Of a stretch of DNA of 64,000 nt, positions 2,473-43,019 are shown piece by piece (within the stretch, counting starts at the first letter, position 1; each line of letters begins with the position of its first letter). The translations under genes and the position numbers were made by a program. The notes beneath the pieces were generated by a model. The model ran no database searches. It worked only from the letters and a program-made list of their open reading frames with translations, and was not told the DNA's origin. Source of the stretch: Candidatus Alloenteromonas pullistercoris (GTDB lineage: Bacteria > Bacillota_I > Bacilli_A > RFN20 > CAG-826). The stretch covers positions 5,295-69,294 of the forward strand of contig JADINA010000024.1 of assembly GCA_017694295.1 (NCBI GenBank), read 5' to 3'.

Positions 2473-2545
2473 TTAGCACTCAAGACTTGACACTGCTAAA
2501 AAGGCGGTTATTATATTGCTAGCACTTGAACAAGACGAGTGCTAA
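2473..2545 (+). promoter_or_regulatory. Two tandem CIRCE (HrcA) operators overlapping a sigma-A promoter
   Basis: TTAGCACTC-N9-cacTGCTAA (2473-2499) and cTAGCACTt-N9-GAGTGCTAA (2519-2545). TTGACA at 2487-2492, TATTAT at 2509-2514. Confidence 0.9.
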
Positions 2546-2570
2546 AAGATAACCACAGGAGGCATTGCAT

Positions 2571-3002
2571 ATGGCTTACAATCTCAACCGCTACATCGGG
2601 AACTTCCTCGATCCCTTCTTCGACGATTCCATCTTCGAGGACATCAACACCGAGAACTTCGGCTCGATGGCCATGAAGACCGATATCCGCGAACTCGACG
2701 ACAAATACGTCATGGACATCGATCTCCCGGGCTTCGACAAGAACAACCTCAACGTCTCGCTCAAGGATGGCTACCTCACCATCACCGGCAAGGTTTCCCG
2801 CAGCATCCGCCCCGAGCAGGGGAAGAAGCATAACTTCATCCACCGCGAACGCTTCTCCGGCTCGGTGACCCGCAGCTACTACGTCGGCGACATGCGCCAG
2901 GAAGACATCTCCGCTTCCTACAAAGACGGCGTGCTGACCATCGAGCTGCCCAAACCGCAGGAAAAGAAGCCGGAAGAAGCCAGCCCGATCGCCATTAAGT
3001 AG
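2571..3002 (+). CDS. Hsp20/alpha-crystallin small heat-shock protein
   Basis: MKTDIRE, DLPGFDK, RER..GS..RSY and ASYKDGVLTIELPK. SD AGGAGG places the start at ATG 2571. CIRCE upstream. Confidence 0.95.
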   Translation: MAYNLNRYIGNFLDPFFDDSIFEDINTENFGSMAMKTDIRELDDKYVMDIDLPGFDKNNLNVSLKDGYLTITGKVSRSIRPEQGKKHNFIHRERFSGSVTRSYYVGDMRQEDISASYKDGVLTIELPKPQEKKPEEASPIAIK

Positions 3003-3016
3003 AGTGGCGAAGTGTC

Positions 3017-3050
3017 AAACCGCTTGAGAAATCAGGCGGTTTTTTGTTTT
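3017..3050 (+). terminator. Intrinsic terminator after hsp20
   Basis: aaaccgcttga-gaaa-tcaggcggttt followed by a T-run. Confidence 0.85.
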
Positions 3051-4241
3051 TTATTTTAGAATTGCGATGATTTCCTCTTGTCTTCCAGCCACGACGACCG
3101 GCTTTCCGTCTTCGATATGGATGTTGGTTTCGCTCCTCATCCCGAAATCCGGGGCGTATATCCCCGGTTCGTCGGAGAAGGAGGTTCCTTCAAGCAGAAG
3201 GCGGTCGTCATGGGTTTCGTAGTTGTCCAAATTGGCCCCGGGGCCGTGGGGGGAGAGGTCGATGGCGATGTTGTGGCCGACCCGGTGGGTGAAGTATGGC
3301 CCATACCCTTCCGCCTCTATGATGCGCCTTGCCACGTCATCGGCCTCAAAAGCCATGACATTTCTTTTTGGCAATTCGCTATTCAGGAATTCGATGACCC
3401 CGTCCCTTGCCTTTTTCAAAACCTCGAATCTGGTTTTGTATTCTTCCGGGACCTCTTCGCCGATATAGCCCATCCAAGTGATGTCGGCATAGACGCCGTC
3501 TTCGTCGTCTAACTTCGCCCACATGTCGATTAGGACCAAGTCTCCGGGCAGCAGCCTGGAATGGTTGTCCTTGGTTGGGGAGTAATGGGGGTTGCTCGCG
3601 TTTTTCCCATTCGCCACCAAAGGCGGCTCATCATAGGTCATCCCCTCTTCGGCAAAGCGCTTTGCGATGAAGTTTTGCACCTCGTATTCGCTTGTCTCCC
3701 CTTCGCTTTCTATCTTCGATTTTATGAAGGCGAAGGCCTCGTCTTTTATTTGCAGCGTCTTCTTGCAGGCGATAAGCTCCTCCTCGTATTGGCGCTGGGT
3801 CAAAACGGCTACCAGGGTTTGCAGCAGGTTGGCCGAGCTTTCGACCTTAACGCCAAGTCCCTTGACGAATTCGACCGATCCGGCATCGGCTTTGGCCACC
3901 CGCATAAGCAGCCCGGAGGCGGAATAGTCCATTAAGACCTTTTTGCCTTTTAATGGCGATAACAGCTTTTCCTCTAGGGAAAGCATTTCCTCCCAGGTGT
4001 TGTAAATTTCCGTCTTGAAAGGGATGGGCCTTCCTTTCAATACCCCGGCGTCAATCGAATGGAGGATGATGGTTGGCTTGCCATATGACGGGATGAAGGC
4101 GATGACTTTCCTGGTGAGCATCGCCTTGCCCAGCAGCTTCGTTAAGACCTCGTTATGGGATTCGTAATCCAATAGCAGATAGCCTTCGGCCTCCTCTTCT
4201 TTTATTTTGCTTTGCAGCAGCTCGATTTCATTGTTTTCCAT
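3051..4241 (-). CDS. Xaa-Pro aminopeptidase, M24 family
   Basis: LVLIDMW, ADITW, HRVGH, DEPGIY and RSETN metal-ligand motifs. Confidence 0.9.
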   Translation of the reverse strand: MENNEIELLQSKIKEEEAEGYLLLDYESHNEVLTKLLGKAMLTRKVIAFIPSYGKPTIILHSIDAGVLKGRPIPFKTEIYNTWEEMLSLEEKLLSPLKGKKVLMDYSASGLLMRVAKADAGSVEFVKGLGVKVESSANLLQTLVAVLTQRQYEEELIACKKTLQIKDEAFAFIKSKIESEGETSEYEVQNFIAKRFAEEGMTYDEPPLVANGKNASNPHYSPTKDNHSRLLPGDLVLIDMWAKLDDEDGVYADITWMGYIGEEVPEEYKTRFEVLKKARDGVIEFLNSELPKRNVMAFEADDVARRIIEAEGYGPYFTHRVGHNIAIDLSPHGPGANLDNYETHDDRLLLEGTSFSDEPGIYAPDFGMRSETNIHIEDGKPVVVAGRQEEIIAILK

Positions 4242-33590: not shown

Positions 33591-34716
33591 ATGAAAGAGC
33601 TAGTCGAGTTAAAACAGCAATCCCAAAACCTTGGGGAGCTTGTTTCGCAGCTCGGTGACTCTCTTTGACTTGCCGAAAATCGAGAAAGAGATAGCCGAAC
33701 TCGAAGCCAAGCAAAACGCCGAGGGCTTCTGGGACGACCAAAACGCCGCCAAAGCGGTCAATAGCCGCCTTTCCTCCTTGCAAAAGAAGGTCGACCGCTA
33801 CAAAAAGGCCGCTTCGGCCTATGAGGATATAAAGGGCATGCTCTCGGAAGTCGGGGAATCCGACGTCGAGATGCTCGAGCTTTTGTCCTCGATGGAGGAC
33901 GACCTCGGGGACGATTGCGAGGATCTTCGCCACCAATTGCTTTTCAGCGGCGAATACGATTCGCTTAACTGCACCCTGGAAATCCATCCGGGCGCCGGGG
34001 GAACCGAAGCCCAGGATTGGGCCTCGATGCTGTTGCGGATGTATGGGCGCTGGGCCGAAAGGAACGATTTCAAGCTCCAGACCATCGATATCCAAGACGG
34101 CGATGAGGCCGGCATTAAATCGGCCACCATCAAGATCATTGGCGATGACGCCTATGGGATGCTAAAAGGGGAAAAAGGCGTCCACCGCCTTGTCCGCATC
34201 TCCCCTTTTGACGCCAACGCGCGCCGCCATACCTCCTTTGCCTCAGTCAACGTGATCCCCGAGTTCGGGGCCGTCCCCGACATCGTCATTGACCCTAAGG
34301 ATCTTCGGGTCGACACCTTCAGAAGCGGCGGGGCCGGCGGCCAAAACGTCAATAAGGTTTCCTCGGCCGTCCGCATCACCCATTTGCCGACGGGGATCGT
34401 CGTCCAATGCGAGATCGAGCGCGACCAGATCCGCAACAAGGCGACTTGCATGAGCATGCTAACCGATAAGCTGATGCAGCGCCGCCTCGAGGAACGGGAA
34501 AGGCAATTGAAGGCCGAAATCGGCGAGCAGAAGGACATCGAATGGGGCTCGCAGATCCGCAACTACGTCTTTCAGCCCTATACCTTGGTAAAAGACGTCC
34601 GCACTTCCTTTGAGACCGGCGACATCCAAGGGGTCATGGATGGCAACATCAACCCGTTTATCTATGCCTATTTGGAACAGGAGGCCAAGAAAAATGAAGG
34701 AAAGCGGAAAAAGTAA
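33591..34716 (+). CDS. prfB: Peptide chain release factor 2, with programmed +1 frameshift at CTT-TGA-C (33663-33669)
   Basis: ATG 33591 opens 25 codons to CTT TGA C; the +1 frame continues DLPKIEK... and contains SPF and GGQ motifs. Confidence 0.96.
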
Positions 34717-38744: not shown

Positions 38745-38765
38745 GCCTCCTCCGAGGCTTTTTTC
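38745..38765 (+). terminator. Intrinsic terminator after secG
   Basis: GCCTC-ctcc-GAGGC-TTTTTT. Confidence 0.7.
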
Positions 38766-38775
38766 TTATTGAGCC

Positions 38776-39588
38776 ATGGATAACCCTTTGAGCATTAAAG
38801 AATACGTTTCCCTAAGGAAAAAGGAACTTGCCAAGCAAGCCGCCTCCTTTTCCAAAGCCCCGACTTTGCTTATCATTCAAGCCAATGACGACCCGGCGAG
38901 CAATTCCTATGTCCGGGGGAAGATCAAAGACGGGCAGGAAGTCGGCTTTAAGGTCGATCTTTTAAAATTCCCCACCGACGTGGGTGAGCAGGAGATACTC
39001 GATGCCGTTAAGCGGGCCAACGAGGACGAAAACATCGATGGGCTCATCGTCCAATTGCCTTTGCCCAAGGGTATAGATGAGGAGAAGATCAAGCTAGCGG
39101 TCGACCCGAAGAAGGACGTCGATGGCTTCCACCCCCTTTCGACCTTCATCCCCTGCACCCCCAAAGGCATTGTCGATTACCTTACCTTCCTCGGCTTCCC
39201 CTTCAAAGGGAAAAACGCCGTCGTCCTCGGCAGAAGTGACATCGTCGGCAAACCGATGGCAAGATTGCTGCTATCGAAAGATTGCAACGTCACCGTGTTG
39301 CATTCGAAAACCGGTGACGCGGATAGGCGGGATTACATCGCCAAAGCCGATTTGATCGTGGTCGCGATTGGCAGGCTTGGTTATTTGGATGGCTCCTATG
39401 CCTTTAAGAAAGACGCCGTCATCGTCGACGTCGGCATAAGCCGGGGGGAGGACGGCCATCTCCACGGGGACGCTGTCCCCAACTTGCCGGTTGCCTTGCA
39501 AACCCCGGTGCCCGGGGGAGTGGGGCTATTGACCAGGATATCGTTATTGGAAAACCTATTGGAGGCCGCAAAATGGAATTCGCGATAA
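38776..39588 (+). CDS. folD: Methylene-THF dehydrogenase/cyclohydrolase
   Basis: YV..K, VQLPLP, KDVDG, PCTP.G, GRS.IVG.P, TPVPGGVG. Confidence 0.95.
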   Translation: MDNPLSIKEYVSLRKKELAKQAASFSKAPTLLIIQANDDPASNSYVRGKIKDGQEVGFKVDLLKFPTDVGEQEILDAVKRANEDENIDGLIVQLPLPKGIDEEKIKLAVDPKKDVDGFHPLSTFIPCTPKGIVDYLTFLGFPFKGKNAVVLGRSDIVGKPMARLLLSKDCNVTVLHSKTGDADRRDYIAKADLIVVAIGRLGYLDGSYAFKKDAVIVDVGISRGEDGHLHGDAVPNLPVALQTPVPGGVGLLTRISLLENLLEAAKWNSR

Positions 39589-40184
39589 GCAATTACCAAG
39601 TATATGGCTTGGAAAGGGCCGTTAAGGCCTCGGGCAACCCGATGAGGACGAAAATCGATACCTCCGAGCCCAATGAAAAAGACTACGCCCGGGCCATTAA
39701 GCTAGGATCGACAAAAGGCGGGGAGGGGCATGACAATTTCCTAAAGGGCATCCTCGTCCAATTGGATGTGACCGCCCCTTTGTTTTGGTGGAAGGAAGCC
39801 CAGCGTTATCATTGGTTTGACTTCGTCTCGAGCCAATCGACCATGCATTGCCTTTTGAAGTTCGATGTTTCCCATCAATGCGTAGACGACACCGATCCGG
39901 TGGTTTTGGAAAGGATGAGGGCCCTCATCGATTCCTATAACTCCATTGCTGACGATGATGCCCACCGCGAAGAGAAAAAGGCCGCGTGGCGCGTTTTGGT
40001 CGCCTCCTTGCCTTGCGGTTTTTGCCTTTCGGCGACCATGACGACCAACTATCAGCAATTGAAGACGATGTACCGTCAGCGTCGCTTCCACAAGCTTAAG
40101 GAATGGCATGTTTTCTGCGATTGGTGCGAAAGCCTTCCCCATTTTGCCGAGCTTATCGGCCTAGACGGGGAAAAGGCGGACTAG
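39573..40184 (+). CDS. Divergent ThyX-like (flavin-dependent thymidylate synthase fold) protein
   Basis: GH..FL..I.V..D.TAP..WW.E..RY...SxSTMH and C-terminal NY..L...Y.QR..H.L.EW pattern of ThyX-like proteins. Overlaps the folD stop. Confidence 0.6.
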   Translation: MEFAISNYQVYGLERAVKASGNPMRTKIDTSEPNEKDYARAIKLGSTKGGEGHDNFLKGILVQLDVTAPLFWWKEAQRYHWFDFVSSQSTMHCLLKFDVSHQCVDDTDPVVLERMRALIDSYNSIADDDAHREEKKAAWRVLVASLPCGFCLSATMTTNYQQLKTMYRQRRFHKLKEWHVFCDWCESLPHFAELIGLDGEKAD

Positions 40185-40298: not shown

Positions 40299-41567
40299 TC
40301 AATTCTTTAAGCAACCTAAGGGCACCACGAATACGCCATCTTCCCTTCTATAGGCATTCTTTGTTCCGGTAAGTACCATTAAAAACGTCGGTTCCCCCAT
40401 CTTTTGGTTATTGACGTTATCTTTGAATTTAATAAGGTTCTTGCAGGATTTTTCTATTGCATCGTCGTCATAAAGCTTAATTTCGATCGCGGCCCATTTC
40501 CCGTTGCCAAAATGAATTATCGCATCCACTTCGAAATCGTTTTTGTCGCGATAGTGGAATAAACGGGCGCCGTTGGCTTCCGCGTAAATTTTCAAATCCC
40601 TAATCGCCATCGCCTCAAAGACAAAACCAAAAGTTTTGAAATCGTTAATCAAATCCTCGGGACTTACGTCCAATGCCGCGGCAGCGATTGAGGGATCGGC
40701 GAAATAACGTTTCGGCGAAGTCCTGATGGCGGTTTTGCTTCTTAATGAAGGCGACCACGCGCTTAATTCGTCAATGACGAAAATATCATTCAAATATTTT
40801 AAATACGAAGAAACGGTGGTGTCCGAAATAGGCAAATTCTCTCCGTAAACGTCTTTCAAAATTGTTGTCATCGGGCAAGAAGTGCCGATGTTTCTGGCGT
40901 AAGACCTCAAGGTTAATCTGAATTTCCTGGTATCGCGTTCTTGTTTTGCGTTTAGCATAAAATCTTGGTTAACCAACGAATCGAAATAGTTTTTGGCTAT
41001 TTCCAAACTATCTTCCTTGCCTAATTCCAAGACGCTGGGAAAACCGCCTCGGCAGGCTAAGTAGGCATAGTCCAAAACATCGAGTTTGGATATCGCCCCG
41101 CTAGGGTAAATGCCATCGAATAAGTCCTTTATCGAATATTCGCCGCCGCTGTCTTGGGATTCATATAAGCTCATTGGCCTCATTGCCAATGTGGAGATCC
41201 TGCCTAAACCGCTGTGGATTATATCAGCCGTTTCCAAAGGCGATGAACTGCCGGTGAGAATGAATTGACCGAACGAGCTTCTTTGGTCGATTTCGAACCT
41301 GATGGCATCCCAAATGAAAGGGATGGTTTGCCATTCGTCGATTAATAGCGGCGCCTCCCTATCCAAAAATTTTTTTGGTGAGGCCTTTGCCAAAGCGATA
41401 TTTTGTTCCCTTGTCGAAGGATCTTGCATATAAATAATCGAGTTGGCAATTTGCGAAGCCGACGTTGACTTGCCACACCATTTCGGGCCTTTAAGCAAAA
41501 CCGCGCCCGAAGTTCTCAATTTCTTTTTTAAAAGATCATCAATAATTCTAGGATAATATTTTTTCAT
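40299..41567 (-). CDS. AAA_14/DUF4143 family ATP-binding protein
   Basis: GPKWCGKST, LIDEWQ, LTGSS, GGFP, KRYFADPS, EVDAI. AT-rich relative to flanks. Confidence 0.9.
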   Translation of the reverse strand: MKKYYPRIIDDLLKKKLRTSGAVLLKGPKWCGKSTSASQIANSIIYMQDPSTREQNIALAKASPKKFLDREAPLLIDEWQTIPFIWDAIRFEIDQRSSFGQFILTGSSSPLETADIIHSGLGRISTLAMRPMSLYESQDSGGEYSIKDLFDGIYPSGAISKLDVLDYAYLACRGGFPSVLELGKEDSLEIAKNYFDSLVNQDFMLNAKQERDTRKFRLTLRSYARNIGTSCPMTTILKDVYGENLPISDTTVSSYLKYLNDIFVIDELSAWSPSLRSKTAIRTSPKRYFADPSIAAAALDVSPEDLINDFKTFGFVFEAMAIRDLKIYAEANGARLFHYRDKNDFEVDAIIHFGNGKWAAIEIKLYDDDAIEKSCKNLIKFKDNVNNQKMGEPTFLMVLTGTKNAYRREDGVFVVPLGCLKN

Positions 41568-41613
41568 GCAACAATTTTACATCAAATTTTGCTAATTTTT
41601 AATACTTTTTGCT

Positions 41614-41690
41614 TTTTGGCGGTTTTTCACTTGGCATTTTGGCGGTTTTTCACTTTGCGTTTTGGCGGGTTTTGACTTGGCATTTTGGCG
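41614..41690. repeat. 23-bp tandem repeat, 3 full copies plus 8 bp
   Basis: TTTTGGCGGTTTTTCACTTGGCA / ...CACTTTGCG / ...GGGTTTTGACTTGGCA / TTTTGGCG, with no spacers. Confidence 0.9.
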
Positions 41691-41714
41691 ACCATAATGC
41701 AACTGCCATTAATT

Positions 41715-42026
41715 TTATGAAAGGATTGCCGATAGGAAGCATAGACCCAACCTGCCCTTTCCCTACTTTATGTAGGATATGTCGGTGAGCAGGTGGAGGC
41801 TAGGCCGCGAGACGGCGAACTGGCGGTTGAGCTTGTTCGAAAACACCGCGTTCTCCGCGATGGCCTTGGCGATCCTCCGCAGCGGGTTGCGGCCCTCAGC
41901 GTATCCGCGAGCTGCGGGTCGATGATCTTCGCCATATCAAAAGCCTCCGGCTGTTTTCAGTGTAACCGGAGGCCGCGTTTTGGGGCACCTTTTTATTTAG
42001 GAGTCCGATTTATGGGGTCCAGTTTA
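41715..42026 (-). mobile_element. Internally deleted IS3-family remnant (terminal inverted repeat + transposase fragment)
   Basis: Minus frame reads NKLNRQF...LLTDISYIK*GKG..LCFLSAIL, the start of an IS3 DDE core, with stop and frameshift. 42003-42026 reads TAAACTGGACCCCATAAATCGGAC on minus, resembling IS3/IS150 ends. Confidence 0.7.
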
Positions 42027-42041
42027 TTGCTTCTGCCTTTT

Positions 42042-43019
42042 TTATTCTTGTTTCACTTTCCAGCGGCCATATTTCTTGCCGCCAATGCGCTTAAGTTTTC
42101 CTTCTTTTTTCAAAATAGCTACTATGCTTTTTACGGTTCGCAATGAAACGCCCAATTCCTCGGCGAGTTCTTCTGTTTTGATCGACGGGTTGGTTTTTAG
42201 CAAAACAAGCAATCTGACTTCTCTTGTATCACCCTTATTGGGAGAGGAAGGGGTGATATGCAGCTCTTTGTTTTCCAAGCGATTATTCTCATTTAATAAA
42301 AGATTTCTTAAAAACTTAATTAAATAGGACCTGTCTTCGTAAATGCCTTTTTGAATATTGGTGTAATTCGCCCTTACAAGAGCGTTTCTGAAATACCATG
42401 CGTTTTTGGCAAAGGTATCATTATTCGTGACATCAAAGCCAAGACTTCGAAGATATTTAATCGCAAATACGGCGGTGGTCCTTGTGTTTCCCTCTTCAAA
42501 GGCATGAATTTGCCACAGATTAGCGATGAAGACGGCTAAATGCACAATTGCTTCATCGATGGATAGCCTTGAATAGTCAAACTGTTTTTCCGTTTTGAAG
42601 TCATATTGAAGCGTCATTTCCAAATCCCTGAAATCGCCATAGATCACCGAGGCTCCATCAAGAACCCATTCTTTCTTTGAGAAGTTGCATGTTCTTAACT
42701 GCCCAGGGTGTTTCAACACACCAACAAAAAGCTTTTTGTGTATCGTTAATAACTGACCTACGGTAAACGTGAAGGAATCTTCGCCAATAAGACGTGCGAT
42801 TCGAATAGAAATTTTGTCAGCCTCTTCGCTTCTATCTTCCGTGGTTGGCTTACTTTCATAGTAAGAAGCGATGATGTTATCTAACTCTTCAAGCGAAATT
42901 TCGCCTTTAAGGTATCTTTCGGACTCTTTAACGAAATAGGATGAGTTTTTAAGACGATCGACATCTTGAAGACCAATTCCAGTTTCCAATATATATTTCT
43001 TTGTATAGTCGTTTTCCAC
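42042..43019 (-). CDS. Fic-domain protein with N-terminal VbhA-like segment and C-terminal HTH
   Basis: IGLQDVD..K.S.Y N-terminus; HAFEEGNTRT Fic motif; NPSIKTEELAEELGVSLRTV HTH. Confidence 0.85.
   Translation of the reverse strand: MENDYTKKYILETGIGLQDVDRLKNSSYFVKESERYLKGEISLEELDNIIASYYESKPTTEDRSEEADKISIRIARLIGEDSFTFTVGQLLTIHKKLFVGVLKHPGQLRTCNFSKKEWVLDGASVIYGDFRDLEMTLQYDFKTEKQFDYSRLSIDEAIVHLAVFIANLWQIHAFEEGNTRTTAVFAIKYLRSLGFDVTNNDTFAKNAWYFRNALVRANYTNIQKGIYEDRSYLIKFLRNLLLNENNRLENKELHITPSSPNKGDTREVRLLVLLKTNPSIKTEELAEELGVSLRTVKSIVAILKKEGKLKRIGGKKYGRWKVKQE

Follow-up and report, generated by a model that had tools for sequence, protein, structure and literature searches.

Thymidylate synthesis is an essential step, and two families of thymidylate synthase are known from textbooks, ThyA (PF00303, EC 2.1.1.45) and ThyX, the flavin-dependent thymidylate synthase (FDTS; PF02511, EC 2.1.1.148). 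In ThyX the RHR of the signature motif RHR-x7-S-x-RY contacts flavin adenine dinucleotide (FAD) and the phosphates of deoxyuridine monophosphate (dUMP), and Arg90, Arg147 and Arg174 of the Thermotoga maritima enzyme bind and polarise dUMP. The ThyX fold can also take another pyrimidine nucleotide, as shown by the ThyX paralogue PolB (4P5A), the C5-methylase of uridine monophosphate (UMP) and dUMP in polyoxin synthesis of Streptomyces cacaoi. PolB is encoded within an antibiotic biosynthesis cluster, and its actinomycete host has a thymidylate synthase besides. Here we analysed a 64,000-nucleotide (nt) stretch of DNA from Candidatus Alloenteromonas pullistercoris (GCA_017694295.1, contig JADINA010000024.1, 5,295-69,294 forward), called the window below, in which all coordinates are given. 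The subject is X, the name used for the 203-amino-acid (aa) protein (P0001) of an open reading frame (ORF) that overlaps the end of folD. X appears to belong to a third lineage carrying out thymidylate synthesis, ThyX-like in its predicted fold and unrecognisable as such by sequence. We hold with good confidence that it functions as a thymidylate synthase with ThyX-like, flavin-dependent chemistry, and that it is most likely the only enzyme of this organism that makes deoxythymidine monophosphate (dTMP). The two genes lie as follows.

38776..39588, + strand: folD, bifunctional 5,10-methylene-tetrahydrofolate (methylene-THF) dehydrogenase / methenyl-THF cyclohydrolase, 270 aa (PF00763, PF02882, phrog_7320, synteny)
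39573..40184, + strand: X, predicted ThyX-fold protein of 203 aa from a divergent, unnamed clade, with flavin-dependent thymidylate synthase as its proposed role (AlphaFold2, Foldseek, VIA, tetramer prediction, phyletic pattern)
39573..39588, + strand: 16-nt overlap of the X start (ATG, 39573) with the folD stop (TAA, 39586-39588), read from the sequence; overlap or near-abutment is kept in relatives

The original prediction, which had been made from the sequence of this stretch, placed the ORF over the folD stop codon, and the 16-nt overlap and its coordinates were confirmed.

Results

Predicted structure of X

X was modelled with AlphaFold2 using A1, a 56-sequence alignment of X relatives, resulting in a predicted local distance difference test score (pLDDT) of 96.3 and a predicted template modelling score (pTM) of 0.89. 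When the model was compared with the Protein Data Bank (PDB) using Foldseek, all matches listed (ranks 1-50 of 150 at E <= 0.001) were ThyX/FDTS structures with 14-18% identity. The best match was Helicobacter pylori 3ah5 (E 4e-8, TM 0.69), and the comparisons with 3ah5 and 1o26 reached a Foldseek probability of 1.00 at TM 0.6-0.7. The model was also scanned with VIA, an exhaustive, Foldseek-independent structure scan of 48,161 chains. The top five matches were all ThyX-family structures: T. maritima 5chp (Z 13.6, 178 residues, 2.8 Å), H. pylori 3ah5 (Z 13.6), Mycobacterium tuberculosis 2af6 (Z 12.5), the UMP methylase PolB (4p5a, Z 12.2) and PBCV-1 4fzb (Z 11.3). The following match reached only Z 5.3. 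As modelled, X has the three-dimensional fold of ThyX. A ThyX-like architecture had been proposed from the sequence; that proposal held and became clear only through structure (AlphaFold2, Foldseek and VIA), as the profile search against Thy1 (PF02511) gave no match while the structure search returned the ThyX fold.

Four copies of X were predicted to form a homotetramer in which every chain contacts the other three. The ipSAE score was 0.93 compared to 0.00 for the best control, the partner pLDDT was 89, and contacts agreed by at least 97% between runs. In the calibration of these complex predictions, the mark was reached by 20 of 30 solved same-chain pairs and by 1 of 23 single chains. Predicted inter-subunit contacts involved X residues 48-59, 83-93, 143-150 (the tightest) and 165-176, which are the conserved motifs of the family. 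FAD was included in the prediction and was unscored. The tetramer score may in part reflect solved ThyX tetramers known to the model, and it shows likeness, not binding.

Distribution of X, ThyA, ThyX and dihydrofolate reductase

The same 151 genomes of the order were searched for X, ThyA, ThyX and dihydrofolate reductase (DHFR, PF00186), with the following outcome.

X only: 32 genomes, 0 with DHFR
ThyA only: 56 genomes, 55 with DHFR
ThyX only: 54 genomes, 1 with DHFR
Two of the three synthases: 4 genomes
None of X, ThyA and ThyX: 5 genomes

X was almost perfectly mutually exclusive with thyA and thyX. DHFR tracked ThyA and was found in none of the 32 X-only genomes, so X would behave like ThyX, regenerating tetrahydrofolate (THF). 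The organism's own family (f1, 41 genomes) contained 30 X-only and 9 ThyA-only genomes, one with both (G141), one with none (G115) and none with ThyX. Congeneric species differed in state: genus g5 had six species genomes with X and five with ThyA, g15 had one of each, and in g39 X, ThyA and ThyX occurred in separate species. Because species within one genus differ in this way, the synthase must have been switched repeatedly.

X together with a second synthase was seen in three genomes (G089, G064 and G141), and in two of the three the context of X was mobile or phage-like. In G089 one X copy adjoins an integrase gene and a second X copy carries three in-frame TGA codons, and in G064 the X copy adjoins a DUF1599 nucleotide-modification gene. 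G141 combines folD-X with a typical thyA-folA pair. Among the five genomes with none of the three synthases, three encoded thymidine kinase (TK) and were less than 90% complete. The other two, G115 (96% complete) and G078, had none of X, ThyA, ThyX and TK, so an apparent lack of every known dTMP route also occurs without X. Assembly gaps, or yet another dTMP route, may lie behind these two cases.

ThyA-only members of the family have kept folD and show no trace of X after it. Replacement of X by thyA in situ was considered and ruled out, since these genomes carry thyA-folA at another place and have other genes in the position after folD. Nine family members without X (L099-L107) encode a short, atypical ThyA with 31-34% identity to the ThyA usual in the order (Pfam E ~1e-85 compared to 1e-110 for the usual type), and the same short type occurs in g39. 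Its gene forms a pair with folA in every case, and in none is folD found within ~6 kb of it. This points to lateral acquisition of the short-type thyA-folA pair as a cassette. The canonical ThyX proteins of the order (L010-L016, families f3 and f7) measure ~300 aa, and their match to Pfam Thy1 is divided into two pieces (positions 11-64 and 56-187), a pattern that implies a sizeable insertion between the two.

Beyond the order, a class-wide sample of 401 genomes contained X in three other families (f11, f21 and f24). In f11, X was found in 17 of 38 genomes and ThyA in 24 of 38 with three overlaps, and all 38 had at least one of the two. In f21, 4 of 10 genomes had X and 6 of 10 had ThyA with no overlap. 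All four belonged to genus g60, in which three X genomes were single-contig assemblies of 2.4-2.8 Mb and relatives of 77% identity are labelled Turicibacter sp. X was present in 2 of the 23 genomes of f24. ThyX was found in none of the 23 X-bearing genomes outside the organism's own family. DHFR was encoded by 9 of the 19 X-only genomes outside the order, and is thus optional with X, as it is with ThyX; where it accompanies X, folate synthesis or salvage may be the reason for its retention.

Supply of dTMP in X-only genomes

The source genome is a 1.42 Mb draft, 86.7% complete, and profile searches of it found no Thy1, ThyA or TK; neither thyA nor canonical thyX, for which the original prediction had asked the genome to be checked, turned up. 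It encodes serine hydroxymethyltransferase (glyA), four genes of the cytidine/deoxycytidine monophosphate (dCMP) deaminase family, FAD synthetase and thymidylate kinase (tmk). Five X-only relatives that were 97-100% complete had no TK, and no deoxynucleoside kinase (dNK) above the cut-off. In a published survey, the few bacteria that have neither thyA nor thyX carry tdk (PMC1971073). The X-only genomes, in which no thyA, thyX or TK was found, would break this rule unless X makes dTMP.

Linkage of X to folD and other folate genes

Related loci were collected in a search with a 10-sequence subset of relatives (A3), and 80 were kept of the 470 species genomes that encode a relative, all of them close relatives. 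In 79 of the 80, X is immediately preceded by folD (gap of -12 to +38 nt by tblastn), and the arrangement is not due to chance. Across these loci X was conserved at 67-84% identity compared to 52-71% for FolD. Five loci (L065, L079, L092, L093 and L112) have the order dCMP deaminase-folD-X, so that both substrates of dTMP synthesis would be served by one operon. In L112 (G090:C42, 6773-8500) a 453-aa Schlafen/AlbA_2-HATPase-helix-turn-helix gene stands directly 3' of X and is followed by a second, partial X copy (residues 89-203, 64% identical), as though an insertion had duplicated part of the X gene at its 3' end.

X stands without an adjoining folD in f11, in f21 and in phages. The gene order in f11 is fhs (formate-THF ligase), orf289, mnmG, X, rsmG and parB, a folate- and flavin-rich setting. 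In L133 (G356:C1) the ORF between fhs and mnmG (2536-3405) encodes 289 aa without a Pfam match, and the whole block lies 13-25 kb from the record start of a single-contig record. In genus g157, DHFR is encoded ~4.5 kb from X.

Active-site residues

Residue conservation was assessed across 151 representatives of the X family, with denominators giving the sequences aligned at each column. Near-invariant polar residues are H53, D54, D65, R78, Y79, S86, S87, S89 and H92, and in the C-terminal part N159, Y160, Q162, K164, Q169, R170 and H173. Four blocks were compared with ThyX.

39726..39734, + strand: G52-H53-D54, near-invariant (H53 145/149), opposite ThyX GHE (T. maritima His53) in a by-eye alignment
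39804..39848, + strand: signature block R78-Y79-H80-W-F-D-F-V-S86-S87-Q-S89-T-M91-H92, in place of ThyX RHR-x7-S-x-RY
40011..40019, + strand: P147-C-G149 of a conserved N-x-P-x-G turn, opposite the ThyX 'ARxxFPN' block (hhalign), with no Arg at the T. maritima Arg147 position
40047..40091, + strand: C-terminal block N159-Y-Q-Q-L-K164-T-M-Y-R-Q169-R170-R-F-H173, aligned by hhalign with ThyX 'TMNARSL..F..R...H' (T. maritima N169, R174, H178)

Residues 78-89 read RYHWFDFVSSQS (R-Y-H-W-F-D-F-V-S-S-Q-S; nt 39804-39839). Conservation in the signature block was 147/149 for R78, 149/149 for Y79, 146/149 for S87, 149/149 for S89 and 144/150 for H92, and its residues 83-93 lie within the predicted subunit interface. 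In the C-terminal block Q169 and R170 were conserved in 145/145 and H173 in 143/145. The stretch from H53 to about residue 88 presumably aligns without gaps to T. maritima ThyX (GHE.../GHD..., V(K/T)AP(I/L)F, R78), and the order of strands and helices in the X model agrees with this alignment. By sequence alignment, X H53, R78, N159, R170 and H173 appear to be the equivalents of ThyX H53, R78, N169, R174 and H178, among which H53, N169, R174 and H178 are flavin- or dUMP-side residues in ThyX. The aligned sequences thus present a catalytic constellation that is partly kept and partly rebuilt.

Sequence family of X

X had no Pfam match even at E <= 10, Thy1 and the ThyA profile (PF00303, Thymidylat_synt) included, and no NCBIfam match at permissive thresholds. 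Nothing meaningful was found among PDB sequences with X alone (phmmer) or with the 56-member profile A1 (hmmsearch). Nine of the 56 relatives in A1 matched Thy1 weakly in Pfam (best E 1.7e-5), and sequence homology between X and ThyX is therefore traceable only transitively. When A1 was aligned with a canonical ThyX alignment using hhalign, the result was not significant (E 0.16 over 40-60 columns), and global mode gave no meaningful alignment. The block aligned at E 0.16 places 'LPxG...TTNYxQLKTxYxQR' of X opposite 'FPN...TMNARSLxxFFxxR' of ThyX, at the C-terminal position expected.

The full-length match of X was to PHROG 6721 (phrog_6721, E 2e-56), a phage family whose function is unannotated. 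The family comprises 4546 clusters at 90% identity and 3002 at 50% identity, and every source-given name among X relatives is 'hypothetical protein'. The nearest relatives, 70-82% identical, come from metagenome-assembled genomes labelled Mollicutes, Bacilli or Candidatus Enteromonas, on contigs of up to 1.5 Mb; whole families of gut Bacilli have X, with relatives labelled Candidatus Enteromonas, Coprobacillus sp. CAG:826, Erysipelotrichaceae and Turicibacter, and phages have it as well. An X homologue was present in 20 phage records, all annotated ones of which say 'hypothetical protein', and in Clostridioides and Fusobacterium phages it lies within the replication module. In a viral structure library, two phage proteins that are uncharacterised matched X best, and most of the matches ranked after them are annotated as phage ThyX. 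Functional annotation for the family is absent from Pfam, NCBIfam and PHROGs, and our literature search found no paper describing it. An apparent literature match for a 'third thymidylate synthase' was a sentence artefact and was discarded.

Many metagenomic X homologues measure 400-470 aa and carry an in-frame homing-endonuclease module, HNH_3 (plus AP2), that splits the match to X in two. Such insertions are common in (essential) phage genes for DNA precursors. Homologues with an HNH_3/AP2 insertion were P0124, P0148, P0191, P0192, P0212, P0229 and P0263.

Layout and surroundings of the locus

Both THF_DHG_CYH domains were found in FolD by Pfam (PF00763, E 1e-31; PF02882, E 1e-41), and the protein also matched phrog_7320 in PHROGs. 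NCBIfam FolD models matched the ORF upstream of X at E ~1e-69, yet under the equivalog cut-offs. Two further elements were noted around the genes.

39561..39565, + strand: GGAGG, Shine-Dalgarno-like, for X, within the folD coding region and 7 nt before the ATG (read from the sequence)
38745..38768, + strand: terminator-like hairpin (GCCTCCTCCGAGGC) with a T-run, 3' of secG and 8 nt before the folD start codon (consensus scan only)

The overlapping layout suggests translational coupling from folD to X, and the hairpin may form the 5' boundary of the folD-X unit. No convincing promoter was seen between secG and folD. In the only gut metatranscriptome run that contained 10% of the sampled words, a 544-nt contig, ~95% identical and from a related strain, spans the folD/X junction at 39410-39946; RNA-library contigs cannot prove transcription, and the contig was not counted as evidence.

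Upstream of folD-X lie secA, prfB, a YitT-family gene, uvrB, a HAD hydrolase gene and secG, and downstream follow genes for a DUF4143 ATPase, a Fic protein and a Y-family polymerase. A prophage origin of the X copy in the window was considered and ruled out because its surroundings are ordinary and chromosomal: it stands among housekeeping genes, and its synteny is kept throughout the family. The AAA_14/DUF4143 ATPase and Fic-helix-turn-helix genes 3' of X (40299-43019, - strand) have an accessory- or defence-type look and flank the housekeeping block. prfB, encoding release factor 2 (RF2; 33592-34716, + strand), has the classical programmed +1 frameshift: a short ORF runs from the ATG at 33592 to CTT TGA C (stop 33667-33669), and the PCRF/RF-1 frame runs on in +1 to 34716.

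Discussion

Proposed activity of X

We propose that X acts as a homotetramer with active sites at the subunit interfaces and binds FAD, which would be reduced by NAD(P)H, the reduced nicotinamide adenine dinucleotide (phosphate). The reduced flavin would take the methylene group from 5,10-methylene-THF, which GlyA would make and the co-translated FolD would balance. The flavin would then pass the methylene to C5 of dUMP, supplied by dCMP deaminase, and reduce it to a methyl group. The products would be dTMP and THF rather than dihydrofolate (DHF), leaving DHFR unneeded. Three points make FAD the probable cofactor of X: DHFR can be dispensed with, ThyX H53, R174 and H178 appear to have equivalents, and the predicted tetramer is ThyX-like. 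The original prediction had offered X as this organism's thymidylate synthase with an altered active site, or as a new folate/flavin-dependent enzyme. Comparative and structural evidence, and only evidence of these kinds, now supports the first of these well: the ThyX fold of the model, the lack of thyA and thyX in the searches, and the exclusivity. The altered motif it had read where ThyX has RHR-x7-S was borne out as R-Y-H with an invariant Y79, and the similar divergent proteins it had expected in phages were found.

Several observations weigh against this proposal. The ThyX fold alone does not fix the substrate because PolB, a UMP methylase, shares it (Z 12.2). X itself matches no Pfam family, Thy1 included, and the profile-profile alignment with ThyX is not significant. 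In the signature, RHR-x7-S has become R-Y-H, with ThyX H79 replaced by an invariant Tyr and R80 by His, and S88-x-R90-Y91 has become S-S-Q-S-T-M-H with a shifted Ser register. No Arg aligns with Arg90 (T90/M91 in X) or Arg147 (V143 in X), as judged from sequence blocks and secondary-structure order only. The Fisher test on the phyletic table (p ~4e-24) is overstated since related genomes are not independent, and we place the weight on the within-genus switches. X coexists with ThyA and DHFR in G141, G243 and G458, two genomes (G115 and G078) apparently have neither a recognised dTMP route nor X, and DHFR persists in nearly half of the X-only genomes outside the order.

Some of these points would fit a ThyX-fold one-carbon transferase acting on another substrate, such as UMP, dCMP or a uracil of tRNA or rRNA, with thymidine obtained through an unrecognised salvage route. 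PolB is among the top structural matches, the residues with which ThyX holds dUMP (Arg90, Arg147 and the second Arg of RHR) appear not to be conserved, X stands between the tRNA/rRNA modification genes mnmG and rsmG in f11, and phage homologues adjoin nucleotide-modification genes, for example DUF1599 in L115. However, such an activity would leave unexplained both the near-exclusivity of X with ThyA and ThyX and the loss of X exactly where thyA-folA was gained. No known salvage route is apparent, given that searches of X-only genomes turned up neither TK nor dNK, and the dCMP deaminase-folD-X operon supplies exactly the two substrates of dTMP synthesis. We consider this explanation quite improbable. 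That X is a catalytically dead ThyX-fold protein serving FolD as a regulatory or structural partner is scarcely credible. The tight folD overlap and the lost canonical ThyX signature would suit it, but about 20 polar residues are near-invariant in a family of ~3000 clusters (50% identity) and group at predicted inter-subunit sites, the places of the active site in ThyX. Members in f11, f21 and phages also have no folD beside them, and complementarity with true synthases would be left unexplained. Neither of these two alternatives explains the exclusivity.

A further alternative keeps thymidylate synthesis as the role of X and departs from ThyX chemistry, either through other reductant or flavin handling or by using methylene-THF as the reductant as ThyA does. 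The changed RHR, the new invariant residues (Y79, S86-S87-x-S89, H92, K164 and Q169) and the DHFR kept in 9 of 19 X-only genomes outside the order, in g157 only ~4.5 kb from X, are compatible with it. Yet oxidation of THF by X would trap folate as DHF in the order, where 32 of 32 X-only genomes have no DHFR; the equivalents of H53, N169, R174 and H178 appear to be retained; and FAD synthetase is encoded. The presence of DHFR along with X says little because folate synthesis and salvage require DHFR too. We regard this alternative as unlikely. A bolder version of our proposal sees in the X family a third kind of thymidylate synthase with a mechanism of its own, of ThyX-fold descent with a rebuilt nucleotide/flavin site (RYH, SSQSxMH, no counterpart of Arg90 or Arg147), whose dUMP binding or activation, or handling of flavin and reductant, would be unlike those of any studied FDTS. 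Many gut Bacilli and numerous phages would then depend on X alone for dTMP, although current annotation does not reveal it. We put this forward tentatively, as possible and somewhat doubtful; its probability overlaps both that of ThyX-like synthesis and that of the altered chemistry just described.

Comparison with known enzymes and significance

Among described enzymes, X is closest to ThyX (TM0449 1O26/5CHP, 3AH5, 2AF6 and 4FZB). The two share, in the models, the fold (Z 11-14 over 168-190 aligned residues), a length of about 200 aa and a homotetramer with conserved motifs at the interfaces, and by alignment X retains equivalents of H53, R78, N169, R174 and H178. X replaces ThyA and makes DHFR dispensable as ThyX does, and both are common in phages. 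X differs in being only 12-18% identical to ThyX sequences, with a profile-profile E of 0.16; RHR-x7-S-x-RY is RYH-x5-SSQSTMH, and counterparts of Arg90 and Arg147 were not found in the alignments. X also has an invariant set of its own (Y79, S87, S89, H92 and Q169) and in this lineage is tightly joined to folD. PolB is likewise alike in fold (Z 12.2, 173 residues). In contrast to PolB, X is encoded once per genome, by minimal gut genomes without another synthase, with secA, prfB, uvrB, a HAD hydrolase gene, secG and folD as its neighbours. ThyA would share the cellular role of X, and the two swap between congeneric species; unlike X, it has an unrelated fold, is flavin-free, makes DHF and is accompanied by folA in 55 of the 56 ThyA-only genomes of the order. 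PHROG 6721 is the same family as X, although the chromosomal, folD-linked members are not described there.

If X is a thymidylate synthase, an annotation gap would be closed, as X-only genomes now look unable to make dTMP, and metabolic models of common gut bacteria would be corrected. The dispensability of DHFR in these organisms would be explained, and this would hint that they are intrinsically insensitive to trimethoprim and other DHFR inhibitors. The family would also serve as a natural experiment to show which residues of ThyX are truly required when a flavin mediates methylene transfer, and X would offer a family-specific drug or marker target.

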